From: Mycobacteriales bacterium
Lineage (GTDB): Bacteria > Actinomycetota > Actinomycetes > JAFAQI01
Direction: 5' to 3'
Length of the DNA: 64,000 nucleotides
Assembly: GCA_035501255.1 (NCBI GenBank)
Contig: DATJWM010000039.1
Span: 654 to 64,653, forward strand
A program made the translations under genes and the position numbers. Position 1 is the first letter of the stretch. The number at the start of each line of letters is the position of its first letter. Under the pieces are notes generated by a model, which saw only the letters and a program-made list of their open reading frames with translations, was not told the DNA's origin and searched no databases. Shown here one piece after another: positions 7,309 to 64,000 of the stretch.

Positions 7309-7426
7309 GATCACTCTCCGCTGCTGTTACTCGCGGATCGGCCGCGATTCCGGGCTGCTTGAGGTGAACGGGCCGCCCGTCACCCCTATGGACTAGGCAT
7401 CAGACACCCGCCGTACGCTCGGTGAT

Positions 7427-9422: not shown

Positions 9423-9429
9423 GCGGCGG

Positions 9430-10608: not shown

Positions 10609-10635
10609 GACCCGGACGCGATGGGGTGGTTCCGC

Positions 10636-11100: not shown

Positions 11101-12020
11101 CCGCTCTTGCACCACCGCAGGATTTCGCCGGTGATCAGATCCGGAGCCTCTTCCTGCGGGAAGTGGCCGACCCCCTTGAGGAGCCGCCACTCGTAGTCCG
11201 CCGAAACGTAGCGGCCGGAGCCCTGAGCGGTGTTCGGCACTACGCACGAGTCGAGCTCGCCGTGCAACGCCAGCGTCGGGACGGTGATCGGTTCCTGCAT
11301 CATCCGCCGGTAGGGGCGGCCGTCAGAGCGGCGCAACAGCGAGCGCATCGACCAGCGGTAGTACTCCAAGGCGCGGTTCGGGACGTGCAGGATCTGCATC
11401 GCGTCGCGGTAACGCCGCTCGGCGAGCGCATCCGGAAAGCCGGGACCACCCCAGCGGTGCAGCAGGTCCGCGACGTTCTCGGCGTCGTTCTCGACCAGCC
11501 AACGCTCGGGCGCCCAGGGCACCTGGAATCGGACGAGGTGCCCGCTGGCCCGCCGCTGATCGCCGTCGCCGCGGAGCGCGGGCAGCCAGCGCAATGGGTG
11601 CGGGCCGGACAGGACCACGAGGCGGGACACGATCGCGGGGTACGCCGCGGCCATCGACCAGCCGACCGTTGCCCCCCAGTCGTGGCCCACCACGACTGCC
11701 TGACCGACGCCGAGGGCACGGATCAGTCCGGCGATGTCGGCGGCGAGGGTGGGGGCGTCGTACCCACGCGGTGGCTTGTCGCTCGCGCCGTACCCGCGCA
11801 GGTCGGGAGCGACCACGTGAATGCCGGCGTCGGCGAGCCCGCTGAGCTGGTGCCGCCACGACCACCAGAACTCGGGAAAGCCGTGGAGGAGGACGACGAG
11901 CGGTCCCGCCCCGGCCTCGGCGACGTGCAGGCGGATCCCGTTCGCGTTGACATCTCGGTGCACCCACGGGCCGTCGTGCAGGACGGTCGACTCCTCGATC
12001 AGCGGTCGTTCGGAGGGCAC
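11097..12020 (-). CDS. Alpha/beta hydrolase, epoxide hydrolase-like (EphE/Rv3670-like)
   Basis: It shows the HGFPEFWWSWRHQ oxyanion region and the nucleophile elbow GHDWG. GTG start. Confidence 0.85.
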   Translation of the reverse strand: MPSERPLIEESTVLHDGPWVHRDVNANGIRLHVAEAGAGPLVVLLHGFPEFWWSWRHQLSGLADAGIHVVAPDLRGYGASDKPPRGYDAPTLAADIAGLIRALGVGQAVVVGHDWGATVGWSMAAAYPAIVSRLVVLSGPHPLRWLPALRGDGDQRRASGHLVRFQVPWAPERWLVENDAENVADLLHRWGGPGFPDALAERRYRDAMQILHVPNRALEYYRWSMRSLLRRSDGRPYRRMMQEPITVPTLALHGELDSCVVPNTAQGSGRYVSADYEWRLLKGVGHFPQEEAPDLITGEILRWCKSG

Positions 12021-12051
12021 GCGCTCACCATCGCACGCACGCGCCCAGCCG

Positions 12052-12480
12052 TCACGAGGCTCGACGTGGGTGCTTGACCCAGGCGACGGTCTCGGCGGCA
12101 GCGGCCTTCGCTCGCTCCGGTCCCTGCAGGTGCTTCAACCGGCCGACCCCGGTGGCGAGAAAGATCGCGGTGAGGACGACATACACCCCGGCCATGCAGA
12201 GAAAACCGGCCCACAGCGGGATGTCGAGACCATCGGAGAAACCGAAAGCCCCGGCGAAGGAGGCCAGGAGCACGGTGAAGAACCCGAAGAGGCCGGCCGC
12301 GCTCAGCAACCCGATCCCCGTCCCCGCCTTCGCGGCGGTTGCGCTGAGCTCTGCTTTGGCGAGCTCGATCTCCTTGTGGATGAGCACCGAGACGTCGCGG
12401 GTTGCGGTGGCGACGAGCTCGCCAAGGGTCTGCTCCGCGACCGGAGTGCCAGTGGTCTCCTCGATCCGGGTCGATGCCAC
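12052..12480 (-). CDS. DUF1469 / holin-X family small membrane protein (Rv3669-like)
   Basis: 142 aa with two TM helices. GTG start with an AAGGAG Shine-Dalgarno. No phage genes lie nearby. Confidence 0.7.
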   Translation of the reverse strand: MASTRIEETTGTPVAEQTLGELVATATRDVSVLIHKEIELAKAELSATAAKAGTGIGLLSAAGLFGFFTVLLASFAGAFGFSDGLDIPLWAGFLCMAGVYVVLTAIFLATGVGRLKHLQGPERAKAAAAETVAWVKHPRRAS

Positions 12481-13732: not shown

Positions 13733-14833
13733 ATGGCTGGTTCGAGACGAATCCTGTTCGTCTGCGGCCGGGTCGAGGCCCGGTCCGCGATGATCCGGCT
13801 GGCGGCCCTCGCCGGGGCGGAGCTCGACGTCACCACTGAGGTGGACGGCCTGCAGGCCGCCTGGCGGAGTGCCGCGGTCGTGGTCGTCGGCAGCGATCTG
13901 GCTGCGGCCGTTGCCGTCACCGAGCCGCCGCGCCGCGAGGGTGTCATCGTTGTGGCCGACGATGCCGAGTCGGCCGAGGTCTGGCAGCTCGCGGTCGCAC
14001 TCGGCGCAGCCGGGGTCTACCAACTGCCACGCGACCAACACGCTGTCCTCGACGTGGTTGGCGCCACGCTCGACGGGCCGATCGAGGCGGCGCCGATCAT
14101 CGCCGTGATCGGCGGGTGCGGTGGTGCGGGTGCCTCCACGCTCGCGGCGGCACTCGCGCTGACCAGTGCCCGAGCACGGCCGACGGTGCTGGTCGACGCC
14201 GACCGCTACGGCGGGGGAATCGACGTCCTGCTCGGCGCTGAGCAATGTGAAGGTGCGCGCTGGCCGGAGTTGTCCGGCGCGCGTGGCCACCTTGAGGCGC
14301 AGGCCTTTGCCAATGCGCTGCCACGAGTCGGGAGCCTCGCCGTGCTCTCCCAGGATCGTGGTCATCCGCAGCCCGAGATCGACCTGGAAACCGCCGACGC
14401 GGTCGCTGCTGCCGTTCGCCGCGCCTTCGCCGCCGTCGTCGTCGACCTGCCACGCCACGGTGACCCGGTCGCGTCGCTGTTCGTGGCGCGGGCTGAGGCG
14501 GTGCTTCTCGTCGTCCCGGCCACCGTCCGCGCAGCTGCGGCCGCCGCGGCAGTAGCGGCATCCGTCGTCGCGCAGGGTGGGGTGCCGTCGCTTGTGGTGC
14601 GCGACGCCGGTCCGCAGCGGCTCGGGGTCGAGGAGATCGCGAGCGTGCTGGGGCATCCGGTCGGCGCGATCCTGCGCAGCGAGTCATGGGTGATGACGGC
14701 CGCCGAGCGCGCAGAGTTGCCGGTTCGGCGGGGGCGAGGGTCGCTGGCGGACGCCTGCGGGTCCCTGCTCGCCTCCTATATCGGCGCCCGCGAGATGACG
14801 ACCGGTGAGCGGGAATGGGCGGAGGCGGGATGA
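13733..14833 (+). CDS. ssd: Septum-site-determining protein Ssd / TadZ(CpaE)-like ParA-family ATPase of the Tad locus
   Basis: It has a degenerate deviant Walker A (IGGCGGAGAST) and matches the Rv3660c position and architecture. Confidence 0.8.
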   Translation: MAGSRRILFVCGRVEARSAMIRLAALAGAELDVTTEVDGLQAAWRSAAVVVVGSDLAAAVAVTEPPRREGVIVVADDAESAEVWQLAVALGAAGVYQLPRDQHAVLDVVGATLDGPIEAAPIIAVIGGCGGAGASTLAAALALTSARARPTVLVDADRYGGGIDVLLGAEQCEGARWPELSGARGHLEAQAFANALPRVGSLAVLSQDRGHPQPEIDLETADAVAAAVRRAFAAVVVDLPRHGDPVASLFVARAEAVLLVVPATVRAAAAAAAVAASVVAQGGVPSLVVRDAGPQRLGVEEIASVLGHPVGAILRSESWVMTAAERAELPVRRGRGSLADACGSLLASYIGAREMTTGEREWAEAG

Positions 14834-15984
14834 CGATGGACGACCTCCTGCTCGACCGGGTACGCCGACGGTTGCTCGAGCGGCCGGGCGGGCTCACCGA
14901 GGCCTCGGTCGCGGCCGCGCTTCGCGAGGAAGCGCCGGTCGCCGGTGCGGGTCAGCTGCTCGACGTCGCCGGCGACCTGATGTCCGAGATTGCCGGTGCC
15001 GGCCCGCTCGAGCCGTTGCTCGCCCTGCCCGGAGTCACCGACGTGCTGGTGAACGGCGCCGGTCCGGTCTGGGTGGATCGTGGCCGCGGCCTTCAGGCCA
15101 CCCCGGTCGCGATCGAGGACGAAGCGGGGGCAAGACGGCTGGCCGTCCGCCTGGTTGCGGCCGGCGGGAGACGCCTGGATGATGCGTCTCCCTACGCCGA
15201 CGCCCGGCTCGCCGACGGGACTCGGGTGCATGCCGTCCTTCCCCCGCTCGCACCGGCAGGCACGTGCCTGTCGCTGCGGGTCCCCCCGCGGACCACCTTC
15301 ACCCTCGACGATTTGGTGGCGGCCGGGTCGGTGCCACGCGAGGGGGCCGATCTGCTGGCGGCGCTGATTGCGTCCCGAGTCGCTTTTCTCGTCACCGGCG
15401 GCACGGGTTCGGGCAAGACGACCGTGCTCTCGACGCTGCTGTCCCTCGTCGACCGCGATGAGCGGGTGCTCCTGGTTGAGGACGCGGCCGAGCTTCGGCC
15501 CGATCTGCCGCATGTTGTCCGGCTCGAGGCCCGGTCGGCGAACGCCGAGGGCGTGGGGGCGATCTCGCTCGACGTCCTGGTGCGTCAGGCGCTGCGGATG
15601 CGCCCGGACCGGCTGGTCGTCGGCGAGGTTCGCGGCGGTGAGGTGCTCGATCTGTTGGCCGCCCTCAACACCGGTCACGACGGCGGATCGGGCACCGTGC
15701 ACGCGAACCGTGCTCACCACCTCCCCGCGCGGATCGAGGCGCTCTGCGGTCAGGCCGGGTTCCCTCGGGAGGCCGCGCACAGCCTGCTGCTGGCCGCCGT
15801 CGACGCCGTCGTGCACCTGCACCGAGCGCGGGACGGGCGACGCGGGGTCGCCGGGATCGGCGTCCTCGCCGCGGGACCAGACGGTCTCGCCCGGGTGATC
15901 CCGGCCTACACCTTCGGTGCGGGTTCGGTGCGCCCGGAGCCGGGCGCCAGCCTGCTCGACGACCGACTTCGGCGCTCGCCGTGA
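14830..15984 (+). CDS. tadA: Tad pilus secretion ATPase TadA/CpaF (type II/IV secretion NTPase)
   Basis: Walker A (VTGGTGSGKTT) with Asp box and His box. ATG at 14830 overlaps the ssd stop; an alternative ATG lies at 14815. Confidence 0.85.
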   Translation: MTMDDLLLDRVRRRLLERPGGLTEASVAAALREEAPVAGAGQLLDVAGDLMSEIAGAGPLEPLLALPGVTDVLVNGAGPVWVDRGRGLQATPVAIEDEAGARRLAVRLVAAGGRRLDDASPYADARLADGTRVHAVLPPLAPAGTCLSLRVPPRTTFTLDDLVAAGSVPREGADLLAALIASRVAFLVTGGTGSGKTTVLSTLLSLVDRDERVLLVEDAAELRPDLPHVVRLEARSANAEGVGAISLDVLVRQALRMRPDRLVVGEVRGGEVLDLLAALNTGHDGGSGTVHANRAHHLPARIEALCGQAGFPREAAHSLLLAAVDAVVHLHRARDGRRGVAGIGVLAAGPDGLARVIPAYTFGAGSVRPEPGASLLDDRLRRSP

Positions 15985-16778
15985 CGGGATGGCTCGCTGC
16001 GGGGGCACTCGCCGCTGCGGTCTTGGTGGCAGGCGCTTCCCCTGCGCGGGCCAGGGTCGCGGCGGCGAGGCAGCGAGAGTTCGCGGGTCGTGGGGTCGTG
16101 ACGCTGGTGGTCGTGGGGATCGGAGGTGGTGCGGTCGCGGTCGCGGGCACCGCCGTGGTTCCGCTGGTCGTCGGAGGTCTGGTCGCGGTCGCGGTGGTCG
16201 AGCGAATCCGGCGGACCCGCCGCGCCGCGCGGGATCGCGACCTGCGCGCCGCGGCGGCCGTGGAGCTCACCTTTGCGCTCGCGGGTGAGCTTCGGGCCGG
16301 TCGGACGCCGAGCCAGGCGTTGGCCGCGGCCGCGCCCACCGCAGGGCCGTTGCGGGCCGCCGTCGAGGCAGCCGGCCTGGCCGCGAGCGTCGGCGCGAGT
16401 CCCGGGCAGGCCTTGCTGCGTGCTGCGCGCGAGCCCGGGGCGTCGCGGCTGCGCTATGTCGCGGCGGCCTGGACGGTCACCGAGACGGTGGGGGGTCGGA
16501 TCGCGGTCGTGCTCGAGCGACTGAGCGAGGCGATGGACGACGACGAGGAACTCCGCCGTGAGTTGACCTCGGCGATGGCCGGCCCGAACGCCACCATGGT
16601 GATGCTCGCCGCGCTCCCGGTGCTCGGCGTGGCCCTCGGACAAGCCGTCGGCGCCGATCCTGTGCGTCTATTGCTCCATCGCCCGATCGGGTGGATCCTG
16701 GCGGCCGTTGCTGCGGTGTTCGACGGCGTGGGGATCTGGGCGACCAGGGCCATCGCGAGAGCGGCGGTGCGCTCCTGA
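15981..16778 (+). CDS. tadB: TadB-like (T2SS F family) membrane protein
   Basis: GTG at 15981 overlaps the tadA stop. It is a polytopic Ala-rich membrane protein in the Rv3658c position. Confidence 0.7.
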   Translation: MTGWLAAGALAAAVLVAGASPARARVAAARQREFAGRGVVTLVVVGIGGGAVAVAGTAVVPLVVGGLVAVAVVERIRRTRRAARDRDLRAAAAVELTFALAGELRAGRTPSQALAAAAPTAGPLRAAVEAAGLAASVGASPGQALLRAAREPGASRLRYVAAAWTVTETVGGRIAVVLERLSEAMDDDEELRRELTSAMAGPNATMVMLAALPVLGVALGQAVGADPVRLLLHRPIGWILAAVAAVFDGVGIWATRAIARAAVRS

Positions 16779-17494
16779 CCGCGCTTGCGGTTGCTGCGGC
16801 CATCCTGGCCGGCTGGCTGGTCGTTCCGGGATCGGTCCGGCACGACCATCGCCTCTCCGGACTGCTGGGTGCGGGAGTCGTCGATTTGCCGACCGGCCCC
16901 GACGCTCTGGCAGACCGGTTCCCGCTCGCCCGCACCGCGGTCTGCGCAGGAGCGTTCGTCGGGTGCCTCGTCCTCGTCGGCGGCGGGCCGGGGGTTGTGC
17001 TCGCCGTGTTCGCGGCGGGCGGCTGCGCGGCCCTCAAGCCGGCTTCGCGGCCGGCACCCGTCGATCCCGACGAGGCGGCCGTCGTCATCGACCTGATCGC
17101 CGGGTGTTTGGACGCCGGGGTGGGGCTGTGCGATGCGCTCGGCGCCGCCGCTCATGCGGCCGAGCGTGGTCTGGGTGATCGCTGTCGGGTCGCTGCCGCC
17201 GCCCTGCGCAGCGGCGCTCCCGCCGCCGAGGTCTGGCACCCCTGGCTCGCCGATCCGTGTCTCGCGCCATTGGCCCGGGTTGCGATCCGGACGAGCGCGA
17301 GCGGGGCGGCGACCGCGGCCGAGTTGCGCCGAGCGTCCAGCCGGATCCGCTCCCTTCGGCGGGCACAGGCACAGGACCGGGTGCGCCGCGCCGCCGTCTG
17401 GTTGGTCGCTCCGCTCGGACTGTGCTTCCTGCCTGCCTTCGTCCTCGTGGCGGTCGTCCCGCTCGTTCTCGGCCTGCTCGCGACGCTCCGCTAA
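16691..17494 (+). CDS. tadC: TadC-like membrane protein (start uncertain)
   Basis: Membrane protein in the Rv3657c position. The first GTG (16691) would overlap tadB by 88 nt; the true start may lie nearer 16775. Confidence 0.55.
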   Translation: MDPGGRCCGVRRRGDLGDQGHRESGGALLTALAVAAAILAGWLVVPGSVRHDHRLSGLLGAGVVDLPTGPDALADRFPLARTAVCAGAFVGCLVLVGGGPGVVLAVFAAGGCAALKPASRPAPVDPDEAAVVIDLIAGCLDAGVGLCDALGAAAHAAERGLGDRCRVAAAALRSGAPAAEVWHPWLADPCLAPLARVAIRTSASGAATAAELRRASSRIRSLRRAQAQDRVRRAAVWLVAPLGLCFLPAFVLVAVVPLVLGLLATLR

Positions 17495-21990: not shown

Positions 21991-22115
21991 GCGGGCCCGG
22001 CCGAGATTGCGGCGTCGCCGTGCGAGGCCGGCCGGGCATTTACTAGACTCTGCGCGCTGTGCGCCGCCATCTCGGTGTGGCGCCTTTGTCGCTGACGCTG
22101 ACCCGAAGGACACCC

Positions 22116-24431
22116 ATGTCCCCGCTTGCCCTGCACTCCCAGCCTGTCCTCGCCCACTCCATGGCGGCAGGCGCCTCGCTGTCCAGCGGGGACCGAGGAA
22201 TCGTCGCCGTTGTGGCCGTGATCGCGGTTCTGGCCCTCGTAGCGTCCGCCTTGTTCGCGCGGGAGGTGCTCGCCTTCGATCAGGGCACGCCACGCATGCA
22301 GGAGATCTCGAAGGCCGTCCAGGAGGGGGCAAGCGCCTACCTGAGCCGCCAGTTCCGAACGTTGGCACCGTTCGCGGTGATCATCTTCGGTGTGTTGTTC
22401 ATCCTGCCGGCCGAAACCACCGGCTCGCGGATCGGCCGCTCGGTGTTCTTCCTTGTGGGTGCGTGCTTCTCGGCGTTCGTGGGGTTTGCCGGCATGACCC
22501 TCGCCACCCGCGCGAACGTGCGCACCGCGGCCGCCGCGCAGCAGTCGGGCGCGAAGGCGGCCACGCGGGTCGCGTTCCGTTCGGGCGGCACGGTCGGGAT
22601 GCTCACCGTCGGCCTCGGCTTGCTCGGCGCGAGCCTGGTGACGGTCATCTTCAACTCCAACGCTCCGCAGGTTCTCGAAGGATTCGGATTCGGCGCCGCG
22701 CTGCTCGCCATGTTCATGCGGGTCGGCGGCGGGATTTTCACCAAAGCCGCCGATGTCGGCGCCGACTTGGTCGGCAAGGTCGAGCAGGGCATCCCCGAGG
22801 ACGACCCCCGCAACGCGGCGACGATCGCCGACAACGTTGGCGACAACGTCGGTGACTGTGCGGGCATGGCCGCGGACCTCTTCGAGAGTTACGCCGTCAC
22901 CCTCGTTGCGTCGCTGCTGCTCGGTCAGATCGCGTTCGGGAGCAAGGGCCTGGTCTTCCCGCTGATCATTCCCGCGGTCGGAGTGTTCACCGCCGTCATC
23001 GGCGTTCTCGTCACGGCCCCCCGTGACGGCGACCGGTCCGGCCTCACCGCGATCAACCGCGGCTTCTTCATCTCGGCCGTGGTGTCCGCGTTGCTCGTTC
23101 TGCTTGTGTCCTTCATCTTCCTGCCGAGCTCCTACCACGACCTGTCGGACAAGGGTGCCTCGTTCGACGTCTCGTCGTTGTCCGGCAACCCGCGTGTCAC
23201 CGCGTTCCTCGCGGTACTCGTGGGACTCGTCCTGGCGAGTGCGATCCAGGTCCTCACCGGCTACTTCACCGAGACGAACCGCCGCCCGGTTCAGGACATC
23301 GGCAAGGCGTCGCTCACCGGTCCGGCCACGGTCATCCTCGGCGGGATCTCCGTGGGATTCGAATCCGCGGTCTACTCGGCGGTGCTGATCGGCGGTGCGG
23401 TCTACATCGCGTTCCTTCTCGGTCACGGCGTCGTCGTGCTGTCGCTGTTCGCGGTCGCGCTTGCCGGCACTGGACTGCTGACCACCGTCGGCGTCATCGT
23501 CGCGATGGATACGTTCGGGCCGATCTCGGACAACGCGCAGGGCATCGCGGAGATGTCCGGTGAGGTCGAGGGCGCGGGCGCCGAGGTGCTGACCGCGCTC
23601 GACGCAGTCGGCAACACGACCAAGGCGATCACCAAGGGGATCGCGATCGCGACCGCAGTCCTCGCCGCGACCGCGCTCTTCGGCTCGTTCGCCTCGGCCG
23701 TGAGCGGCGGCAGCGGCAACGTAGACATCTCACTCAACGTGTCCAAGCCCAACGTGCTGTTCGGCCTGATCATCGGGGCTTCGGTCGTGTTCATGTTCTC
23801 CGGCCTGGCGATCAACGCGGTCGCCCGGGCTGCCGGCCGGGTCGTCATCGAGGTGCGCAGCCAGTTCCGCAACAACCCCGGCCTGATGGACGGATCCGTG
23901 CGGCCCGACTACGCGCGGGTCGTCGACATCTGCACCGCGGACTCGTTGCGTGAGCTCGCGACGCCGGGGCTGCTCGCGGTGCTCGCCCCGATCGCCACCG
24001 GCTTCTGGCTCGGCTGGGAGCCGCTCGGTGCCTACCTTGCCGGCGCGATCGCCGCAGGGGTCCTCATGGCGATCTTCCTCGCAAACTCCGGCGGCGCGTG
24101 GGACAACGCCAAGAAGCTCGTCGAGGACGGCAACTACGGCGGGAAGGGCTCCGAGGCACACGCCGCGACGGTCATCGGTGACACCGTCGGCGATCCGTTC
24201 AAGGACACGGCCGGCCCGGCTCTCAACCCGCTGATCAAGGTGATGAACCTCGTGGCGTTGCTGATTGCGCCGACAGTGGTGAAGTACGGCGTCAACGGAC
24301 CGCACCAAAACACCGCGATCCGGGTGATCGTCGGCGTCATCTCCCTCGGCCTGATCGTCGGGGCTGTGATCGTCAGTAAGCGGCGCGAGGTCGACATGGC
24401 GGCCGCCCCCACGGAGTCGGTCAGCGCCTGA
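22116..24431 (+). CDS. hppA: Membrane-bound proton-translocating pyrophosphatase (H+-PPase)
   Basis: Full-length V-PPase homology (GGIFTKAADVGADLVGKVE, DNVGDNVGDCAGMAADLFESY). ATG at 22116 with an AAGGA Shine-Dalgarno is preferred over the track start. Confidence 0.9.
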   Translation: MSPLALHSQPVLAHSMAAGASLSSGDRGIVAVVAVIAVLALVASALFAREVLAFDQGTPRMQEISKAVQEGASAYLSRQFRTLAPFAVIIFGVLFILPAETTGSRIGRSVFFLVGACFSAFVGFAGMTLATRANVRTAAAAQQSGAKAATRVAFRSGGTVGMLTVGLGLLGASLVTVIFNSNAPQVLEGFGFGAALLAMFMRVGGGIFTKAADVGADLVGKVEQGIPEDDPRNAATIADNVGDNVGDCAGMAADLFESYAVTLVASLLLGQIAFGSKGLVFPLIIPAVGVFTAVIGVLVTAPRDGDRSGLTAINRGFFISAVVSALLVLLVSFIFLPSSYHDLSDKGASFDVSSLSGNPRVTAFLAVLVGLVLASAIQVLTGYFTETNRRPVQDIGKASLTGPATVILGGISVGFESAVYSAVLIGGAVYIAFLLGHGVVVLSLFAVALAGTGLLTTVGVIVAMDTFGPISDNAQGIAEMSGEVEGAGAEVLTALDAVGNTTKAITKGIAIATAVLAATALFGSFASAVSGGSGNVDISLNVSKPNVLFGLIIGASVVFMFSGLAINAVARAAGRVVIEVRSQFRNNPGLMDGSVRPDYARVVDICTADSLRELATPGLLAVLAPIATGFWLGWEPLGAYLAGAIAAGVLMAIFLANSGGAWDNAKKLVEDGNYGGKGSEAHAATVIGDTVGDPFKDTAGPALNPLIKVMNLVALLIAPTVVKYGVNGPHQNTAIRVIVGVISLGLIVGAVIVSKRREVDMAAAPTESVSA

Positions 24432-45224: not shown

Positions 45225-45710
45225 ATGACCGCAGTGGTCTCACTCGGCGGGAATCTCGGCGATCGCGCGGCGTACCTTCGGCGCGCGATCGAGGTCATCG
45301 CGATGCAGGTGCCGGTGCGTGCCGTCTCCTCGCTCTATGAGTCCGCGCCGATCGGAGTGACGGATTCCCCGGCGTACCTGAATGCGGTCGTCGTGGTCGA
45401 TTCTGGCGATGCCGAACGGGTATTCCAGGCGGCCGGGGCGGCCGAGCGGAGTCAGGGTCGACTGCGGTCCCGGCGCTGGGGGCCGCGCACACTCGACGCA
45501 GACGTCATCGCGGTCGACCAGCAGGTGTCCGCCAGTCCACGGCTCACGCTCCCGCATCCGCGTGCCCACGAGCGAGCGTTCGTCCTGATGCCGTGGCTCG
45601 AGGTGGACGCCACCGCGTCGATCACCGGCTACGGGCCGGTCCGACGGTTGCTGGAGGAATTGCCCGATCAGCACGTCGTGCGGGTTGCCCCGGCGCCCCC
45701 GCTGCCGTGA
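45225..45710 (+). CDS. folK: 2-amino-4-hydroxy-6-hydroxymethyldihydropteridine pyrophosphokinase
   Basis: HPPK motifs are present (VVSLGGNLGDR, RWGPRTLDADVI). Confidence 0.85.
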   Translation: MTAVVSLGGNLGDRAAYLRRAIEVIAMQVPVRAVSSLYESAPIGVTDSPAYLNAVVVVDSGDAERVFQAAGAAERSQGRLRSRRWGPRTLDADVIAVDQQVSASPRLTLPHPRAHERAFVLMPWLEVDATASITGYGPVRRLLEELPDQHVVRVAPAPPLP

Positions 45711-46195
45711 CGCGCCCGACCCGGTACACCGTGCTGGTCGCGGTCGCGATCGTTGCCGGTGGATCGATGTATGCCCTGACCCGGTTCGCCTACGATTCCA
45801 TGCCCGGCCCCACCCTGCTTCAGCTGCTGTCGATCGCCATCCTGGCGATTGCGGAGTTCTACGTCGCGCTCCTGACCCGCGCTCGGCTCGCGGGACGCCA
45901 CGGCACCCGTCCTGTCGATCCGTTGGCGGTCACCCGATTCGTCGCGCTCGCGAAGGCGTCTGCGATCGTCGGCGCGCTTGCCGCCGGTGGGTACGCCGGC
46001 TTCCTCACCTGGGTCGCGAGGTTGGACTCGCCAAGTGCCTCCGACGACTCCCGGCTGGCCGCGTTCGGGGTGGGGTTCGGGTTGCTGCTGACCGCGGCCG
46101 CGCTGTTCTTGGAGCACGTGTGTCGGGTGCCCCCGAGGGATGACGACGACCCGCCTCCGCCGGCCGACGACGTCTGGGACCATCACGAGCATTGA
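45707..46195 (+). CDS. DUF3180 membrane protein (Rv3605c-like)
   Basis: GTGA overlap with folK. Four TM helices. Conserved fol-operon tail gene. Confidence 0.65.
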   Translation: MTRPTRYTVLVAVAIVAGGSMYALTRFAYDSMPGPTLLQLLSIAILAIAEFYVALLTRARLAGRHGTRPVDPLAVTRFVALAKASAIVGALAAGGYAGFLTWVARLDSPSASDDSRLAAFGVGFGLLLTAAALFLEHVCRVPPRDDDDPPPPADDVWDHHEH

Positions 46196-46220
46196 CCTCA
46201 CGCCGGTAGGCTGCGCTGCC

Positions 46221-46526
46221 ATGACGACCGACGAGCCTTCCGCCGCGCCGACGTTTGCTGAGCTCGATGCGCTGTCCGACCGCGACCTACGCGAGCGGGC
46301 GTTCGCCGTTGCGGAGCACCATCACGACCTGGGGTTCTTCTGGGATCTCGTGAAGCACCTGCGCGGCGCCGAGGACTTCGGATCCGACGACGGATCGGCC
46401 GGCGGTCTGGGGGAGTCGCTCACCGGTGCGGCCGAGGTCGTTGCCGGGCTGCTCGGACGAGGAGAGGACACGCTCGACCCGATGGTCCGGGCGCGGTTCA
46501 TCTCCTACCTTCAGGAGCACGGCTGA
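46221..46526 (+). CDS. Hypothetical acidic protein (101 aa)
   Basis: ATG at 46221. No recognisable domain. Confidence 0.4.
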   Translation: MTTDEPSAAPTFAELDALSDRDLRERAFAVAEHHHDLGFFWDLVKHLRGAEDFGSDDGSAGGLGESLTGAAEVVAGLLGRGEDTLDPMVRARFISYLQEHG

Positions 46527-46565: not shown

Positions 46566-48155
46566 TCAGGCCAGCGGGGTCGCGGTGACCACTCGGGACG
46601 GTGATCCCAGCTTGGTCTTGTTCTTCGCCGCGACCCGGACGTGGTAGCGCGTGTCGGGTGTGAGCCCCCGGATCCGAACGAAGTCGCGGTGTGCGCCCAC
46701 TGGCCGGGTTTTGAACGAGCAGCCCTTCGCGGCGAACGAGCAGGTCGTGTATTCGATGCGATAGCCGGTGATCCGCTGGCCCCCGTCCTTGGCCGGTTCC
46801 GTCCAGTGGACCGAGATCGAGTGCCGACCCGAACTCGCCGACACATGGCGCGGCGCACTCGGTGGGGCAACGAGCGTGGCGGAGATTCCCTTCGCGGCGC
46901 CTCCGAAGGCGTTGACCGCGGCGACGAGGAACCGGTAGGTGTGGCCCGGCTTCAGCTTCTTGGTGTCGAAGCTCGTCTTGGTCGTCTCGCCGAACCCGCT
47001 GAAGTCGATCCCTTCAAGGATGCCGCCGTCGAAGGACTCACGGGAGACGGCTCCGTAGATCACCTCGTAGGCGATGACACCGCCGCCGGTCTGGGCGGGC
47101 GGATCCCAGGTGAGGTGCGCGACGTCCTTGTGCACGATCACCGCGAGGTTCGTCGGCGCACTCGGGGCCGCCCCGAAGATCGCGGCGGCGTTGGGCGCGC
47201 CGCTTGCGCTTCCCACTCCGGTGACCGTCCGAACCGGAGCGGCGTCGGCCTTGGCGTCCGCGGCGAACACCTGGATGCTCTGATTGCCCGCGTTGGTGAC
47301 GACCGGCTCGCCGAGCGCGTCGATCGCGATGCCGCTCGGCGCGTTCAGTCCGGTATCCGCACCCATGATCGTGTGACCCGGGAGCAATCCACCGCCGAGG
47401 CCGGGGAGAGCGAACTCGTCGGAGATGCTGTTGGTGGCGCCGTCGGTCACCCAGAAGCCGCCTTCCCCGTCCATGTGCAAGGCGGTGGGCGCGGTGATCG
47501 GGTGCTTGGACGTCCCGGTCGCGTCGACGTCGGCCGCGACGTTGCCGAACTTGCCCCGCATGTAGGCGGTGATCGTGGCCGAGCCGCTGGACGGGGTGTT
47601 CGCGACGACAATCTCGCCGAGGTCGAGATCCACTGCCAGCGCGACCGGGTGGTCGAGGTCGGTCTTGCTCCCGCTGATCGTGAGGGCCGGGAGCACGTTG
47701 CCATCCGAGCCGAGGTTGAACGCCTCCACCAGGTTGGCGGGAGGATCGACCACCCAGACGTACCCGCCCGAAATCGTGATCCCCTGAGGCTCGTCCATCG
47801 AGGTCGAGCTTCCGCTGATCGTCGCGGCCGGGGCCGCGTCACCGTCGGCATCGGCGGCGTACTTGGTGATCGAGTCGTTCCCCGCGTTCGATACGTATAC
47901 CGTCCCGCTGCTCCCCAACGCGACCCCCGTCGGATCGTCGAGCCCGGTGTCCGGCCCCGAGATCGTGGCGATCGGGGTCGCTGTCCCGGATGCGCCGGGC
48001 GCGTATTCCGACAGCGCGTTCGCCGCCGAGTCAACGGTCCAGATCACGCCGTAGTCCGGGGATGACGCCGCAGCCGCCGAGTCGGCGACGACCGTCAGCG
48101 GGGCGACGACGAGCGCAGCCGAGGCAAGGAGCGGGATGAGGATCGACGATCGCAT
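46566..48155 (-). CDS. Secreted NHL-repeat beta-propeller protein with two C-terminal fibronectin type III domains
   Basis: ATG at 48155 with a signal peptide (MRSSILIPLLASAALVVAPLTVVA). Repeated NHL-like units (GVALGSSGTVYVSNAGNDSI...) precede two Fn3-like modules. Confidence 0.7.
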   Translation of the reverse strand: MRSSILIPLLASAALVVAPLTVVADSAAAASSPDYGVIWTVDSAANALSEYAPGASGTATPIATISGPDTGLDDPTGVALGSSGTVYVSNAGNDSITKYAADADGDAAPAATISGSSTSMDEPQGITISGGYVWVVDPPANLVEAFNLGSDGNVLPALTISGSKTDLDHPVALAVDLDLGEIVVANTPSSGSATITAYMRGKFGNVAADVDATGTSKHPITAPTALHMDGEGGFWVTDGATNSISDEFALPGLGGGLLPGHTIMGADTGLNAPSGIAIDALGEPVVTNAGNQSIQVFAADAKADAAPVRTVTGVGSASGAPNAAAIFGAAPSAPTNLAVIVHKDVAHLTWDPPAQTGGGVIAYEVIYGAVSRESFDGGILEGIDFSGFGETTKTSFDTKKLKPGHTYRFLVAAVNAFGGAAKGISATLVAPPSAPRHVSASSGRHSISVHWTEPAKDGGQRITGYRIEYTTCSFAAKGCSFKTRPVGAHRDFVRIRGLTPDTRYHVRVAAKNKTKLGSPSRVVTATPLA

Positions 48156-48229
48156 GCGCGGACGGTAGCGGATCTTCACCCCATTGTGTGGGCGAAACCG
48201 CCATTGCTGGTGGGCGACCGTGACGGCGG

Positions 48230-49359
48230 CTACTTGTCGATGTCGCCCACAACAAAAAACAACGTCGTGAGGATCGGTACGAGATCGCCGACCGACGCAC
48301 CGGTGAGCAGGTGCGGGAGCACCTGAACGTTGGCGAACGACGCGGTTCGAACCTTCAGCCGCCACGGTGTCTTCTGCCCGCGGGACACGAGGTAGTACCC
48401 GTTGATCCCGAGCGGGTTCTCGGTCCAGGCGTAGGTCTCGCCCTCCGGCGCCTTGACCACCTTCGGCAGCCGGACGTTGATCGGCCCCGACGTGGTGGTG
48501 GCGAGCGTCTCCCGGCAGTACTCGGCGATGTCCAGCGAGACTTCGACCTGGTCGACAAGACACTCCAGCCGAGCCACGCAGTCACCGGCAACGCGGGTCA
48601 CGACCCGCAGTACGCCGGCCGGGAGCAGGTCGTAGGCCAGGGTGGGGTCGTCGCGACGCAGGTCCATGTCGATCCCGCTGGCTCGCGCAATCGGCCCGGA
48701 TACCCCATATCCGTCGCAGATCGTCCGGTCGAGTGATCCGATGCCCCGGTAGGGCTCCGAGGATTCGAGCAGGCGGAGGAATGCAGGCACGGTCAGCCTA
48801 CGGATCCGGTCGATGGTGAGCGCCGCGCGATCGAGCCAGCCCGTGGGCAGGTCCTGCTTGAGGCCGCCGACCTGGTTGAACATGAAGTGCATCCGACCCC
48901 CGGAAACCTCTTCCATGAGCGCCTGGATCATCTCGCGGGCACCGAACACGGTCGCTGTCGTGTCGCGGTCTGCCCCCGGGGCGGAGGCGAGAAACAACAG
49001 GTGGCTGAGCACCCGGTTGAGCTCAGCAAGCATCGTGCGGGCCCACACCGCCCGGACGGGGACGTCGATGCCCAACATTCGCTCGACCGCGATCGCCACC
49101 CCGAGCTCGTTGCTGAATGCCGCCAGCCAGTCGTGCCGATTGGCAAGGACCAGGATCTGGCGGTAGTCGCGCGCTTCGAACAGCTTCTCCGCGCCGCGAT
49201 GCATGTAGCCGACGATCGGGACGGCGTGGACGATCTGCTCGCCTTCGAGGGTGAGTGCGAGCCGAAGCGCGCCGTGTGCGGCGGGATGTTGCGGCGCGAT
49301 CTGGAGGATCACGTCGGGCTGTCCGACATCCGCGGTCGAGACGGTCAGCTCTCGCGCCA
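48230..49359 (-). CDS. Stand-alone NuoD / complex I 49-kDa (NDUFS2) family protein
   Basis: GTG at 49359 with a GGGAGG Shine-Dalgarno. NuoD signature [11 protein letters not shown]...[15 protein letters not shown]...[10 protein letters not shown]. No other nuo genes within the window. Confidence 0.8.
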
Positions 49360-49386
49360 CGCGGGCGATCCTCCCAGAACCAGGGT

Positions 49387-50160
49387 CTACCCGCGTCTGG
49401 GCATCCAACGGAAGTAGCGGACCGCGATGACGATCGAAACGACCCCCCAGATCAGCAAGGCGCCCAGCTGACGCCATGCCCAGCCGCTCGATCCGAACTG
49501 CAGCGGGTCGAACACCTTGTACAGCGCTTCGATGAAGGGTCGTAACGGCAGGTACTTCGAGATGGTCAGCATCGTCCCGCTGATGGGGAAGTAGGTGCCG
49601 GAGATGAACACCATGACGAAAAACGGCAGGTTCAGGATCGCCGGCGCCGAGTCGACGTTGGGGATGAACGACGACACGGCAATTCCGAGCGCACAGAAAA
49701 CCAGCGATGCCAGCGCGATGGTTACCACCATCGGCAGGATGTGCGCGGCCGGCAGGTGAACCCCGTAGACAACGATCGCGAACACGACGCAGACGATCGA
49801 CAGCAGCGAGGACACGATCACGGCGCTGCCGATCGAGCCGCCGATCAGCGCCCAGGACGGCAGCGGCGTCCCCCGCATCCGCTTGAGCACGCCGTCCTCG
49901 CGTTGCCGCACCAGTTTGAGCGCGATGCTCATGAAGCAGGCGCTCATGACGCCGTACGCGAGGATGCTGGGCGTGTAGTACTGCTTGAGCAACACTCCCG
50001 CGCCCAGTGTCTTGTCGTGACCGCTCCCCGCAGCGCCGACGAGGATGATGAACAACACGATCGGGAACAGGAAGGTGAAGCTGGCGGCCAGCGGGTTGCG
50101 CCAGTAGCTCTTCTGCTCGTACCCGACCTGAGTCCGGACCAGGGCGAGGTCGGCGCTCAT
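49387..50160 (-). CDS. ABC-2 type transporter permease
   Basis: Six TM helices and ABC-2 family features. Overlaps the ATPase gene stop. Confidence 0.8.
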
Positions 50161-51095
50161 CGGTGGTCCTCACGGGCGCCCGCATCGCCGACGGTGGCGA
50201 GGTGCGGGCCGCCGACGAGGCTGAGATAGATGTCCTCGAGACTCGGTCGGCTCGCGTTGAGGCTTTCCAGCGGGATGTTGTTGTCGAGCGACCAGCCGGT
50301 CAGGGCGTGCAGGACGGCGACGTCGTCCTCGGTGGTCAATTCACAGAAGCCGTGCTGGTCGAGCGCGACGGCGACCGGCAGGCCGCCAGGGTCCACGCCG
50401 TCGGGCAACTTGAACCGGATGTGCGCCGCCGCCCGATCCCGACCGCCGAGGGAGTCGGGAGAGCCCTCGGCGACGACCTTCCCGCTGCCGATCACCACGA
50501 TTCGATCGGCGAGTGCCTGTGCCTCGTCCATGTAGTGGGTGGTGAGCATGATCGTCGTCCCGAGGGCCCGCAGTCCCGCCACCATCTCCCACGCGCCGCG
50601 CCGAGCCGACGGATCGAACCCGGTCGTCGGCTCGTCGAGGAACAGCAACGCGGGGTTGCCGATGATGCCGTAGGCGACGTCGAGGCGCCGTTGCTGACCG
50701 CCGGAGAGCTTGCTCACCCGTGCACCAGCTTTCTCCTCCAGCCCGACCAGACCGATCACTTCGTCGACGTTGCGCGGGTTCGGGTAGTAGTCCGCGGTGC
50801 GGTTGAGCGTCTCGCGAACGGTGAGGTACGGGTCGGCCGCGGTGCCTTGGAGCACGATCCCGATCCCTTCACGCCAGGCCCGATCGCCATGCTGCGGGTC
50901 GCGCCCGAGGACGCTCACCTGACCGCTGTCGCGGTGCAGATACCCCTCGAGCACCTCGAGGGTCGTCGTCTTGCCCGCGCCGTTGGGTCCGAGAAGAGCC
51001 ACGCAGGCGCCCTCCTCGACGGTGAACGTCACGCCCGCTACGGCGCGGACGCTGCCGTAGCTCTTGTGCAGATCGTCGACGACGATTGCGGCCAT
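50157..51095 (-). CDS. ABC transporter ATP-binding protein
   Basis: ATG at 51095. Walker [10 protein letters not shown], signature LSGGQQRR, Walker B LLFLDEPT. Confidence 0.9.
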
Positions 51096-51135
51096 GTCGG
51101 TGGTGCCTCTCTGATGCGACAACTGCCTGTCGACG

Positions 51136-52194
51136 CTACGGGTTCCTCGACGCCGCCCCAATCGGGGGTAGGACCTCTCGTCCGGACAGCAGCCAGGTGA
51201 AGCCGCCGAGTCCGGACGGGTCGGCAAGGGTGGCCACGTCGCCGGCAGCCTTCAGTCCGGAGATGAACTCGACCGGATCACCGGCGTAGGTGGTCGTCGG
51301 TTCCGCGACGCCGAGTGCGGCCAGCGCGTCGTGCTGCGTGATCAGGAGGTCACCCTCGGTGGCGAGCGAGTCGAACAGGACGTGCGCGGTCAGGTCACAC
51401 GAGCCGTCCGGGACGGGTCGGACCTCGCGCCCGCACCGATAGCCGGTCAACGTCCCCGCCCGGTGCAGCTCAGGGTGGGCGGCGTAGTCGATCGCGACCG
51501 CCACCCCACGGTCGAGGCAGGCGCACAGGGTGCGCCAGAGGGCATCCCGCGTCCGCCCGATCTCGATCCGGTCGCCCGGCTCGTGCACGGGCCACCAGCG
51601 TTGCTGCCAGGCGAGCGCGTCCCCTGCGAGGCGAGGGCCGAGTGTCTCCTCGCCGGTGAGATGAACGTCGATCCGGTGCGGACCGTGGGTGGTGTTGATC
51701 GCGACGTCGATCGGCACGACGTCGAGCAGCTCGTTCGCCAGCAGCAAGCCGGTGAACCCCTTGGGTGGTTCGGAGCGCCAATCAACGCGGTCGCACAACC
51801 CTTCCGGGCGGGGCGCGACATCGACCCCCACCAGCTGCCAATGCTGGGGCGTCATTGCCGCGAGCTCGTGCAGGAGTTCGCCGCCCCCGGCGCCGACGTC
51901 GACGACGCTGAACCGCCCCGGCCCGACCGCCTCCTCGACTCGCCGGGCCAGCGCCGCGATCACCGTTGCCCATCGGGCGTTGTCGTGTGCTGACGTCCGG
52001 AAGTGGCGCGCGGGGGTCCCGCTCGTGCGGTAGAAGCCACGCTCGCCGTACAACGCTCGGTCGATCGCCGTGCTCCAAGGCACGGGCGGCGCAGTCAAGC
52101 GCTGCGCGAGGGATGCTGCCGGCGCCTGCACCCCCGACACGTTACGGCGTACCCTGTTCGCGTCCGGTACCCCGCCGTGAGGACTGGAACCCAT
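51136..52194 (-). CDS. MidA/NDUFAF7-family (DUF185, COG1565) SAM-dependent methyltransferase
   Basis: ATG at 52194 with a GGAGGGAG Shine-Dalgarno. Family-like motifs: FYRTSG, VVDVGAGGGELL, VDVAPRPEGL, and LLANELLDVVPIDV (the ANE(L/F)xDAxP motif). Confidence 0.65.
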   Translation of the reverse strand: MGSSPHGGVPDANRVRRNVSGVQAPAASLAQRLTAPPVPWSTAIDRALYGERGFYRTSGTPARHFRTSAHDNARWATVIAALARRVEEAVGPGRFSVVDVGAGGGELLHELAAMTPQHWQLVGVDVAPRPEGLCDRVDWRSEPPKGFTGLLLANELLDVVPIDVAINTTHGPHRIDVHLTGEETLGPRLAGDALAWQQRWWPVHEPGDRIEIGRTRDALWRTLCACLDRGVAVAIDYAAHPELHRAGTLTGYRCGREVRPVPDGSCDLTAHVLFDSLATEGDLLITQHDALAALGVAEPTTTYAGDPVEFISGLKAAGDVATLADPSGLGGFTWLLSGREVLPPIGAASRNP

Positions 52195-53095
52195 GACCTC
52201 GCTCCCTCCGGCGCAGCGTCCTGCCCGGCTCGCGGTCGGCGCCATCGGTGCCGGCCGGGTAGGGGCCGTGCTGCTCGCCGCGCTCGCCCGCGCCGGGCAC
52301 CGAGCAGTGGCCGTGTCCGCGGTCTCGCAGCCGAGCCTGCGACGGGCGGAACTGCTGATCCCGCAAGCCGAGGTCCTTGCCGCGGACGAGGTCGCGGCAC
52401 GCAGCGAGCTGTTGCTGCTTGCCGTCCCCGACGACGAGCTGGCTGATCTGGTGCGCGGTCTCGCAGGCTCCGGCGTCGTGCGTCGAGGCACGCTCGTCGT
52501 CCACACCAGCGGCGCGCACGGAATCGGGGTGCTCGCCCCCCTGACCGACACCGGTGCGCTTCCCCTTGCCCTGCACCCGGCGATGACGTTCACCGGCACG
52601 GAGGTTGATCTCCAACGGCTCGGCGGGGCGTGTTTCGGAGTCACGACGGTTGGCGACCTTCGCCCGGTGGCGGAGGCGATCGTGATCGAGATGGGCGCCG
52701 AACCGGTGTGGATCGAGGAAACCGCGCGGGCGGTCTACCACGCCGGGCTCGCGTTCGGGGCAAACAACCTCGTGACTCTCGTCGCGCAGGCCGGCGATCT
52801 GCTTCGCGCTGCCGGCGTCGAGCGCCCGCAGAGCATGCTCGGTCCGTTGCTCGGCGCTGCGCTCGACAACGCGTTGCGCCACGGCGATCGGGCGCTGACC
52901 GGTCCGGTCGCGCGCGGAGACGCGTCGACCGTTCTCGCCCATCTGGAGGCGATCTCGGCGAGCGCGCCGGAGGCCATCCGCGCCTACGTCGAGATGTCCC
53001 GCCTGACCGCGCTGCGTGCGCTTGCCGCCGGGATCCTCAGCGCCGAACGGGCGGAGGCACTGCTCGACGTGCTAGCGGCCCGGGAACGCGAGTGA
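52193..53095 (+). CDS. Rossmann-fold DUF2520 protein (Rv3603c-like)
   Basis: NAD(P)-binding GAIGAGRVG. Conserved position upstream of panC. Confidence 0.8.
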
Positions 53096-61870: not shown

Positions 61871-63043
61871 GTGAGCGCCCAGCCGGAGAGTGCGTCTCCG
61901 GTCACCGTCGTCGTTGTTGACGACTCGGCAACGCAGCGACGGTTCATCCGGGGCGCCGTTGCCGCCGATCCCATGCTCGAAGTCGTCGGCGAGGCTCGGA
62001 CCGGCCGGGACGCGATCGCCCTCGTCGAACGGCACCGGCCGACCGTCGTGCTCATGGACCTTCACCTGCCCGTGATGAACGGCATCCAGGCGATCGAGCG
62101 GATCATGGCGCTGCGGCCCACCCCGATCGTGGTCTACTCCTCGTTTGTCGACGGTGAGGATCGCGCGAACGCGGAATCGGCCTACGCTGCCGGCGCCGTC
62201 GATGTCATGGCGAAGCCGGGAACGAACGACAGCGGACGACTCGAGGAGTACGCCGAGGCGTTACGGCAGCGGCTGCGGGTCGCGGGCCGCGTCCGGGTGA
62301 TCACCCACCCGCGCGGGCGCCTCGGCGGCTCGAGTTCATCCCTGACGACGATGCGCCTCGGCATGGTCGCTCAGATGCCCGCGACTACCGGCTCGACCGT
62401 GACCTGCGAACCCAGCGCCGAGCTAATCGCGAGCCTGGAGGCGCGCGAGGTGAAGCTGCTCGCCATCGGCGCGTCGACCGGCGGGCCGCAAGCGCTCGCC
62501 GCCGTCCTCGCCGGGCTTCCTGAACGCACGACCATCCCCATCCTCGTGGTCCAGCACATGGCGGACGGCTTCATGGAGGGCCTCGCGGAGTGGCTGAATG
62601 ACGTGTGCCCACTTCCGGTTGCGCTGGCCGTCGACGGCCGCAGGCTGGTGCCGGGCACCGTCGCGCTCGCCCCGAGCGGCCAGAACCTCATCGTTCACGA
62701 CCGCTACCGGGTCACGATGCGCGAACCCGACCCGGGCCAATACCACGTGCCCGGGATCGACACGACGTTCACCTCCGTGGCCGACGCCTACCGTTCCACC
62801 TCGGTCGGCGTGCTGCTCACCGGAATGGGTCGCGATGGTGCGGCCGGCCTCAAACGGATCCGCGACGAAGGCGGACTGACGATCGGCCAGGACGAGTCGA
62901 CGAGCACGGTCTACGGCATGCCCGCTGCGGCCATGTCCGCCGACGCCGTTGACATCCAGCTGCCCTTGCCGGAGATCTGTACGGCGATCCACCACCTGCT
63001 CGCCACCTCGCCGCCGGTGGACCCGAGCGGAGCCGCACCATGA
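61871..63043 (+). CDS. cheB: Chemotaxis response regulator protein-glutamate methylesterase
   Basis: N-terminal REC domain (VVDDS...DLHLPVMNG) plus a CheB methylesterase domain (GASTGGPQA). GTG start. Confidence 0.9.
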   Translation: MSAQPESASPVTVVVVDDSATQRRFIRGAVAADPMLEVVGEARTGRDAIALVERHRPTVVLMDLHLPVMNGIQAIERIMALRPTPIVVYSSFVDGEDRANAESAYAAGAVDVMAKPGTNDSGRLEEYAEALRQRLRVAGRVRVITHPRGRLGGSSSSLTTMRLGMVAQMPATTGSTVTCEPSAELIASLEAREVKLLAIGASTGGPQALAAVLAGLPERTTIPILVVQHMADGFMEGLAEWLNDVCPLPVALAVDGRRLVPGTVALAPSGQNLIVHDRYRVTMREPDPGQYHVPGIDTTFTSVADAYRSTSVGVLLTGMGRDGAAGLKRIRDEGGLTIGQDESTSTVYGMPAAAMSADAVDIQLPLPEICTAIHHLLATSPPVDPSGAAP

Positions 63044-64000
63044 AGCGGATCGCGCTCACGGACCACGAGTTCGCGACGGTCGCGAGCCTGCTGCACGACG
63101 CCGCCGGACTGACCTTCGACGACTCCCGCCGGGACTCGCTGGGCTACTCGATCGGTGAGCGGATGGCCGCGCACAAGATCCCGGACGTCAAGTCCTACCT
63201 CGAGATGCTCCTGGGGTCGGGCGGTGACTCGGAGCGCCAGGCGCTCCTCGACGAGGTCACGATCCCGGAGACCCACTTCTTCCGGAACCCGCCTCAGGTG
63301 CGGGCGCTTCGCAAGCACGTACTGCCCGAGCTCCTCCGCCAAGCCTCCCAGTCCAAGCGGCTTCGGATCTGGAGTGCAGGGTGCTCGACCGGCGAGGAGG
63401 CGTACACCGTCGCGATCCTGGTCCGCGAACTGCTGCCACAGAGTGTCGATTGGGATGTGAAGATCGTCGCGACCGACGTCTCGACCCGCGCGCTCACCGC
63501 CGCGGGCAACGCGCACTACGGCGAGCGGGCGTTCGTCATGACCGAGCCGCTCGATCTTGCCCGCTGGTTTGTGCTCGACACGACCACCGGATCGTGGGTG
63601 GTGCGGGACGAGGTGCGCAGCCTGGTCGAGTTCCAGCATCACAACCTGGTGACCGATCCGCCGCCGTTCGACGACGAGCAGGTGGACCTGATCCTGTGCC
63701 GCAACGTCACGATCTACTTCGACCGGGAGACCACCCGCCGGCTCATGATGCGCCTGCACAGTCGGCTCCGCGACGGTGGATACCTCTTCCTCGGTCACGC
63801 CGAGACGTTGTGGCAGATCAGCGACGACTTCTCGCTGGTTTCCCTCGGCGACGCGTTTGTGTACCGGCGGCTCGACCAGCGAACGGAGCCCGACAGCGAG
63901 CCGGCGTACCGACGGGTGTTGCCGGACCGGCGTACCGAGGACGAGCCTCGCCCGACCCGAGCGGATCGGCGGCGTGGCTACAACGACCGGCGCGGACGGG
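63040..64000 (+). CDS. cheR: Chemotaxis protein methyltransferase CheR (3' end beyond window)
   Basis: ATGA overlap with cheB. CheR N-terminal helical domain plus SAM-binding motifs (IWSAGCSTGEE, ILCRNVTIYF). There is no stop before position 64000. Confidence 0.85.
   Translation, partial: MKRIALTDHEFATVASLLHDAAGLTFDDSRRDSLGYSIGERMAAHKIPDVKSYLEMLLGSGGDSERQALLDEVTIPETHFFRNPPQVRALRKHVLPELLRQASQSKRLRIWSAGCSTGEEAYTVAILVRELLPQSVDWDVKIVATDVSTRALTAAGNAHYGERAFVMTEPLDLARWFVLDTTTGSWVVRDEVRSLVEFQHHNLVTDPPPFDDEQVDLILCRNVTIYFDRETTRRLMMRLHSRLRDGGYLFLGHAETLWQISDDFSLVSLGDAFVYRRLDQRTEPDSEPAYRRVLPDRRTEDEPRPTRADRRRGYNDRRGR

Follow-up and report, generated by a model that had tools for sequence, protein, structure and literature searches.

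A MidA/NDUFAF7-family methyltransferase gene paired with an orphan NuoD paralogue in Actinobacteria

The locus and its gene layout

A 64,000-nucleotide stretch of DNA from a Mycobacteriales bacterium (GenBank assembly GCA_035501255.1, contig DATJWM010000039.1, positions 654 to 64,653), referred to below as the window, carries on its minus strand a head-to-tail row of five genes (positions 46566 to 52194). They encode, in order, a methyltransferase of the MidA/NDUFAF7 family that depends on S-adenosylmethionine (SAM), the ATPase and the permease of an ABC-2 exporter, an orphan paralogue of the complex I subunit NuoD/NDUFS2, here called NuoD2, and a secreted protein with NHL repeats and two Fn3 domains (Table 1). 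The subject of this analysis is the relation between the first and the fourth of these genes, since NDUFAF7 dimethylates Arg85 of NDUFS2 (PMC3750175, PMC9006661, PMC8042128). In humans this arginine dimethylation is indispensable to the assembly of complex I; what it does is difficult to dissect, and in bacteria its history has been told as a proteobacterial one.

The window has a base composition of about 70% GC, and its nearest kin are uncultured Frankiaceae and Mycobacteriales metagenome-assembled genomes (MAGs). An earlier inspection of its letters and translated open reading frames (ORFs), called here the sequence-only reading, had assigned the five genes to families that are all confirmed by Pfam, and had bounded them with DUF3180 and DUF2520, which indeed flank them. 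One coordinate is corrected: the end given for the NuoD gene, 49359, is out of frame and one base short of the correct 49360. The intergenic gaps down the cluster, proposed to be 74 nt or less, measure 40, -4, 26 and 74 nt, with the permease start overlapping the ATPase stop by 4 nt. No terminator-like site was found by a terminator scan between the cluster genes, and neither promoter nor terminator scans rose above what shuffling would give. The GTG start of NuoD2 has GGGAGGA ahead of it. The start of the methyltransferase is ambiguous (ATG 52194, GTG 52140 or TTG 52095): the ATG has a good Shine-Dalgarno sequence, yet overlaps the opposite-strand DUF2520 start at 52193, and the GTG is the start used in a public gene call (P0121, 334 aa), relatives being 302-345 aa long.

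Table 1. Genes of the cluster and of its immediate flanks, with coordinates in the window
Feature	Position	Strand	Evidence
MidA/NDUFAF7-family SAM-dependent methyltransferase (PF02636, COG1565)	51136-52194	-	Pfam 61.6 bits, cut-off 23.3
ABC transporter ATPase, DrrA/NodI-like	50157-51095	-	PF00005 ABC_tran 102.5 bits
ABC-2 type permease	49387-50160	-	PF01061 ABC2_membrane 73.4 bits; PF12698 70.2 bits
NuoD2, orphan NuoD/NDUFS2 paralogue, 376 aa	48230-49360	-	PF00346 162.9 bits, cut-off 24
Secreted NHL-repeat/two-Fn3 protein, final gene on the strand	46566-48155	-	Pfam NHL 56 bits, fn3 88 bits
Rossmann-like/DUF2520, first pan-operon gene, divergent from the methyltransferase	52193-53095	+	PF10727 151 bits, PF10728 112 bits
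DUF3180, fol operon, convergent with the cluster	45593-46195	+	PF11377 116 bits
Small conserved ORF, 128 aa, end of fol operon, convergent with the cluster	46140-46526	+	

Identity of the methyltransferase

By its domain and profile matches, the methyltransferase is a member of the MidA/NDUFAF7 family, as had been proposed under the name MidA/DUF185. The PF02636 match spans profile positions 75-235 of 249; none of the NCBIfam models matches the protein. As a single sequence it finds PDB entry 4F3N (COG1565) with E=3e-8 in phmmer; a profile built from 13 actinobacterial homologues reaches 5.8e-24 with the same entry, 4.3e-19 with 1ZKD (DUF185) and 9.7e-11 with the Dictyostelium MidA structures 5ZTZ/5ZU0/5ZZW, which are annotated as 'protein arginine methyltransferase NDUFAF7 homolog'. 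The glycine-rich motif of class I SAM methyltransferases is present (VVDVGAGGGEL), with D66, G68, G70 and G72 invariant in the alignment (numbering of L087, a divergent locus described below), and the motifs ANELLDVVP, IDYA and DLTAHV are also kept.

NuoD2 as a distinct paralogue family

The D-subunit homologue is, on its profile scores, alignment and genomic setting, a genuine orphan NuoD paralogue. Its best PDB match is Nqo4 of Thermus thermophilus (196 bits), and its scores stay under all the NuoD equivalog cut-offs of NCBIfam (NF008974, 296 vs 522; TIGR01962, 291 vs 459; NF004739, 284 vs 360). When its residues are mapped through an alignment to T. thermophilus Nqo4, His29 is the retained equivalent of Nqo4 His38, Arg55 (in YMHRGAEK) occupies the position of bovine NDUFS2 Arg85, and Trp78 (in NRHDW) stands where Nqo4 has Tyr87, a ligand of the quinone head group. 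All three residues are invariant across 84 sequences, among them the equivalent of the NDUFS2 arginine that the sequence-only reading cited from eukaryotes. The C-terminal GDxD(K/R) and the HRGxEKLF element, both of which face cluster N2 in complex I (PMC8042128), are likewise strongly conserved in NuoD2.

An exhaustive homologue search of 1.84 billion cluster representatives places the protein in a family of its own. About 70 of the best 150 matches are of the same type, short (about 375 aa) and carrying HR(G/S)xEKLF and (N/D/S)RHDW, and canonical NuoDs carry DRxDY at the RHDW site. The RHDW clade (68 representatives) is monophyletic in 100/100 neighbour-joining bootstraps, the arginine of HRGxEK is present in all RHDW representatives except one, and the family divides into at least three clades. 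Thousands of proteins named 'NADH-quinone oxidoreductase subunit D' thus belong to a distinct paralogue family. Two other ways of classifying the protein were discarded. A deletion of about 24 residues (Nqo4 313-337) was dropped as a diagnostic of NuoD2, many short canonical NuoDs sharing it, and a [NiFe]-hydrogenase large subunit was rejected, as the Cys ligands are missing (where the Cys motifs would be, the protein has PQHPAAHG and GDIDK) and hydrogenase models reach just 15-22 bits.

The gene stands apart from other complex I genes. In agreement with the sequence-only reading, no other nuo or hydrogenase gene was found in the window, either by Pfam among 45 ORFs (the five cluster genes included), about eight more ORFs (e.g. 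topA and a sigma factor) being judged by eye, or by tblastn with eight subunits (NuoA/B/C/H/I/J/K/L) taken from the contig L174. In the 174 loci other than L174, tblastn places none of these subunits within 10 kb of NuoD2. L174 (34% GC) carries at 3795-12224 an iron-type ABC transporter, heliorhodopsin and nuoA,B,C,D,H,I,J,K,L, and ends in nuoL. Its NuoD (P0293) has NRIDW, with Trp at the Tyr site; it is the nearest relative outside the RHDW type, and the NuoD2 clade has it as sister more often than any other, at a weak support of 31/100 bootstraps.

In Streptomyces loci the same RHDW paralogue (61-64% identity) again stands between pan and fol genes, beside a MidA gene, and these members correspond to the nuoD2 of the literature. 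The Streptomyces nuo2 operon comprises nuoA2, B2 and H2-N2, without an N-module, and nuoD2 is encoded apart (PMC8388888, PMC3765725). The non-respiratory role that had been suggested for the paralogue is therefore not indicated, as Streptomyces, which carries this nuoD2, possesses a second nuo operon without a nuoD of its own. It had also been supposed that a NuoD gene simply split off from a nuo operon would speak against a partnership with MidA; a split of this kind is essentially what is seen in Streptomyces nuo2, and it coexists with the conserved MidA pairing rather than replacing it.

Pairing of MidA and NuoD2 across Actinobacteria

The conservation of the pair was followed in two sets of loci. 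The set selected by NuoD2 comprises 83 loci (80 genome loci and 3 others) from Streptomyces, Kitasatospora, Nonomuraea, Streptosporangium, Microbispora, Kribbella, Intrasporangium, Oryzobacter and many MAGs. Within 10 kb of NuoD2, 70/83 of them have a MidA homologue (39-54% identity), a figure that becomes 70/74 when only loci whose upstream flank reaches 8 kb or more are counted. The two genes form a tandem with a gap of 300 nt or less in 19 loci and are convergent at such a distance in 6. The reverse set consists of 80 metagenome loci picked by the methyltransferase profile, and here an RHDW NuoD2 was found in 23/23 of those whose downstream flank is 5 kb or longer, including lake lineages of 54-55% GC. 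The neighbourhood pointed out in the window is thus conserved from both sides. In a separate group of loci (L084, L086, L089-L093 and L175), from lineages that include Cutibacterium and Luteococcus, NuoD2 lies between lsr2 or DUF2520 and the fol genes, with no MidA within 10 kb.

The closest association is found in L087, a divergent locus of clade 4, where MidA (2522-3430) overlaps NuoD2 (3421-4539) by 10 nt, which implies translational coupling. The pair is also kept where its surroundings have changed. In Microlunatus-type loci nadB/nadC replace panC/DUF2520 and the MidA-NuoD2 tandem is retained; in Streptomyces and Kitasatospora, where NuoD2 or the fol block has been inverted, MidA lies beside NuoD2 but 2-7 kb from DUF2520. 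Judged by this distribution, MidA and NuoD2 form an old actinobacterial two-gene module. In the searchable literature, the pairing is met with nowhere beyond one passing remark in a preprint (10.1101/2021.02.01.429150), and a literature search surfaced no paper joining NDUFAF7 with Streptomyces or Actinobacteria.

Among the protein clusters, one formed at 90% identity (P0264, P0511, P0516, P0520) mixes NuoD2 (361 aa) and MidA (286-288 aa) proteins; the probable bridge is gene calls of that lineage in which MidA and NuoD2 are fused or overlap.

The exporter and other variable neighbours

The genes between MidA and NuoD2 differ from lineage to lineage. Orthologues of the ABC ATPase (63-79% identity) occur only in L001, L002, L026 and L043, four close relatives among the 83 NuoD2 loci, and the permease has the same restricted distribution. 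The layout is of the DrrAB type, with ATPase and permease together and overlapping by 4 nt, and the scores stay under the drrA/drrB subfamily cut-offs (TIGR01188 drrA, 222 bits for the ATPase, cut-off 312). In three of the four ABC-bearing loci a HisKA_3/GerE two-component system lies on the opposite strand between MidA and the ABC genes. Such systems are the usual partners of ABC-2 exporters. Elsewhere the space between MidA and NuoD2 is taken by a P450 and a class-V aminotransferase (Streptosporangiales) or by a bPH_2 pair (Kribbella and Actinoallomurus), and Streptomyces has a kinase of the same type as that two-component system (DUF7134-HisKA_3) upstream of MidA. Homologues of the NHL/Fn3 protein, whose N-terminus MRSSILIPLLASAALVV looks like a signal peptide, were found only in L001 and L002 among the 83 loci; its gene is a lineage-specific neighbour and probably lies outside the MidA-NuoD2 module.

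From this distribution, the exporter is a local insertion into an older module and not a partner of NuoD2. The suggestion that the whole block was inserted between DUF3180 and DUF2520 is not supported: the ABC pair is lineage-specific and the NHL/Fn3 gene rarer still, and MidA and NuoD2 themselves are long-standing at this place in Streptomyces, Streptosporangiales, Propionibacteriales, Micrococcales and Frankiales-like MAGs. It had also been thought that NuoD2 might be tied to the exporter, and one could read methylase, exporter and NuoD2 as a single functional unit, non-respiratory and related to export, given that in the window these genes share a strand, are spaced by 40, -4 and 26 nt, and are not separated by any terminator-like site. 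The comparative data leave such a link unsupported, because the ABC pair is present in so few loci, has its own two-component system alongside in three of them, and gives way elsewhere to genes of other kinds. We regard an export unit as very improbable.

Two recurrent neighbours are recorded here for their own sake. A DUF7134-HisKA_3 kinase with a GerE-type regulator recurs by MidA/NuoD2 in Streptomyces and in relatives of the window (L046:7324-8535, L040:12258-13463, L001:6235-8069) and is absent from the window. The class-V aminotransferase of Streptosporangiales (PF00266, cysteine-desulfurase-like) stands directly upstream of NuoD2 on the same strand (L016:8411-9859, L011:8558-9892), which hints at a possible iron-sulfur (Fe-S) link.

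Proposed explanation and its alternatives

The conserved pairing suggests that the methylase-substrate pair of mitochondria is also at work in Actinobacteria. The reading that we prefer, with a probability of roughly 0.55, is that Arg55 of NuoD2 is methylated by MidA, and that a second complex I, lacking the N-module and with an altered acceptor site, has NuoD2 as its detached D subunit; Arg55 methylation, assembly into this complex (Nuo2) and co-transcription of the genes are what we infer. The methyltransferase would use SAM to modify Arg55 in the invariant HRGAEK loop, equivalent to NDUFS2 Arg85 and next to the Fe-S cluster N2. Methylation would occur before or during the docking of NuoD2 to a NuoB-type Fe-S partner, and NuoD2 would then, most probably, fill the vacant D position in a Nuo2 whose genes lie elsewhere in the genome. 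By analogy with Streptomyces nuo2, NuoD2 probably serves a second complex I of this kind, without N-module. Nuo2 would treat its acceptor differently from canonical complex I because Trp replaces the Tyr that binds the quinone. In the lineage of the window, the ABC-2 exporter pair would have been inserted between MidA and NuoD2 on the same strand, so placed that four of the genes, perhaps five, could still be transcribed together.

Several observations weigh against this reading, and the first of them concern gene order. All sampled loci fall in one pan-fol block with the order clpC-lsr2-lysS-coaX-panC-DUF2520, then MidA and NuoD2, then small ORF-DUF3180-folK-folB-folP-ftsH; with a single shared block, inherited gene order could explain much of the co-location. 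Adjacency was counted in the 90 loci with MidA, NuoD2 and DUF2520 all in view: MidA lies within 400 nt of NuoD2 in 37/90, within 400 nt of DUF2520 in 55/90, and within this distance of both in 19/90, so that it is found more commonly beside DUF2520 than beside NuoD2. In two marine loci (L107 and L146) MidA points into the pan operon, co-directional with DUF2520-panC. In addition, NuoD2 occurs without MidA within 10 kb in Cutibacterium, Luteococcus, L089/L090, L091, L092/L093 and L175, the arginine being kept in all of them.

These facts speak for an explanation by synteny alone, MidA and NuoD2 having been fixed early in a very stable clpC-lsr2-lysS-pan / fol-ftsH block, with MidA acting elsewhere, for example on the NuoD of a canonical nuoA-N operon or on a pantothenate-related partner, the latter suggested by its head-to-head position with DUF2520. 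Pure inheritance accords poorly, however, with the persistence of the pair where DUF2520 and panC are absent (the Microlunatus-type tandem) or kilobases off (the inversions of Streptomyces and Kitasatospora), with the 10-nt overlap in L087, with the presence of NuoD2 at every checkable MidA locus, and with the fact that elsewhere these two families supply the enzyme and the substrate of a proven pair (PMC9006661). MidA has never been seen without NuoD2 and the converse has been seen, which fits an accessory enzyme and its substrate. We therefore hold an explanation by synteny alone to be unlikely.

The remaining objection concerns the acceptor site. The equivalent of His38 is lost in many members of the family, including the Propionibacteriaceae clade (e.g. 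PxHPxRAG), and the Tyr is lost in all, which is odd for a working quinone site. Together with the orphan position of the gene and its scores under all NuoD equivalog cut-offs, this may mean that NuoD2 derives from NuoD but works on its own and without catalysis, perhaps as regulator, assembly chaperone or decoy for NuoB-type partners, and is not a stoichiometric subunit of a membrane complex, in which case MidA may or may not modify it. Three points stand in the way: the N2-facing HRGxEKLF and GDxD(K/R) elements are strongly conserved, Streptomyces nuo2 lacks a D gene, and the D subunit that forms the closest outgroup comes from an 11-subunit operon and already has the Trp. A stand-alone role is thus distinctly unlikely. 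A related idea, to which we give still less credence, combines the two partners differently: NuoD2, widespread in Actinobacteria, would not reduce quinone, and its docking to a NuoB-type Fe-S partner would be gated by MidA-dependent arginine methylation, so that it would act under post-translational control, as a switch or decoy, in tuning or assembling respiratory complexes, possibly where no second nuo operon exists.

The MidA-NuoD2 pair offers a genetically tractable system (e.g. in Streptomyces) in which the enzyme and its presumed substrate are adjacent. It also provides a candidate function for the uncharacterised nuoD2 and for the Nuo2 complex without N-module, and the Tyr-to-Trp signature predicts unusual acceptor chemistry.

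Flanking and other genes of the window

On the pan side, past DUF2520, PanC, CoaX and Lsr2 were identified by Pfam, and LysS and ClpC were assigned solely from tblastn synteny with relatives. FolP, SnoaL, FolB and FolK lie upstream of DUF3180 on the fol side, and the small ORF that follows DUF3180, without a Pfam match, occupies the same place in many relatives. Farther away on the plus strand are a membrane H+-translocating pyrophosphatase (22059-24431; PF03030, 820 bits), an ion-pumping energy enzyme unrelated to the cluster; Tad/Flp-pilus-like genes (13733-17494) for a T2SSE ATPase and two T2SSF proteins; and, at the window's end, two ORFs (61871-63999) that are CheB-like and CheR-like by eye reading of their translations only.

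Comparison with known systems

The nearest functional precedent is the NDUFAF7-NDUFS2 pair of mitochondria and alpha-proteobacteria, with which the actinobacterial pair shares the enzyme family (PF02636), the substrate family (PF00346) and the target arginine in HRGxEK. Paracoccus Nqo4 bears the arginine mark and E. coli NuoCD does not (PMC3750175, PMC9006661, PMC8042128). The differences lie in the partner, here an orphan NuoD2 and not the D subunit of a 14-subunit operon; in the taxon, actinobacterial here whereas the literature gives MidA a proteobacterial origin; and in the arrangement, the genes of enzyme and partner being chromosomal neighbours, often in one operon, with methylation itself only predicted.

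Compared with canonical NuoD/Nqo4/NDUFS2, NuoD2 has the fold family, PQHPxxHG, HRGxEK and the C-terminal GDxDK/R in common, but it carries RHDW where the canonical proteins have DRxDY, and it is short, without the approximately 24 residues of Nqo4 313-337, like other short NuoDs. The papers on Streptomyces nuoD2 (PMC8388888, PMC3765725) just list the gene and mention neither its MidA neighbour nor the Tyr-to-Trp signature.

The other actinobacterial precedent is that of Ca. Actinomarina, where a heliorhodopsin-linked operon for an 11-subunit 'ancestral' complex I is reported to be followed by an NDUFAF7 gene (10.1101/2021.02.01.429150). L174, as far as its sequence runs, has this arrangement, and so gives the preferred reading an independent context in which the NuoD already has Trp. 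As in the module described here, the system is actinobacterial and associated with PF02636, and its complex I is without N-module; in operons of that type, however, nuoD lies inside the operon, whereas here nuoD2 is detached from it and stands beside the methylase in the pan-fol block.

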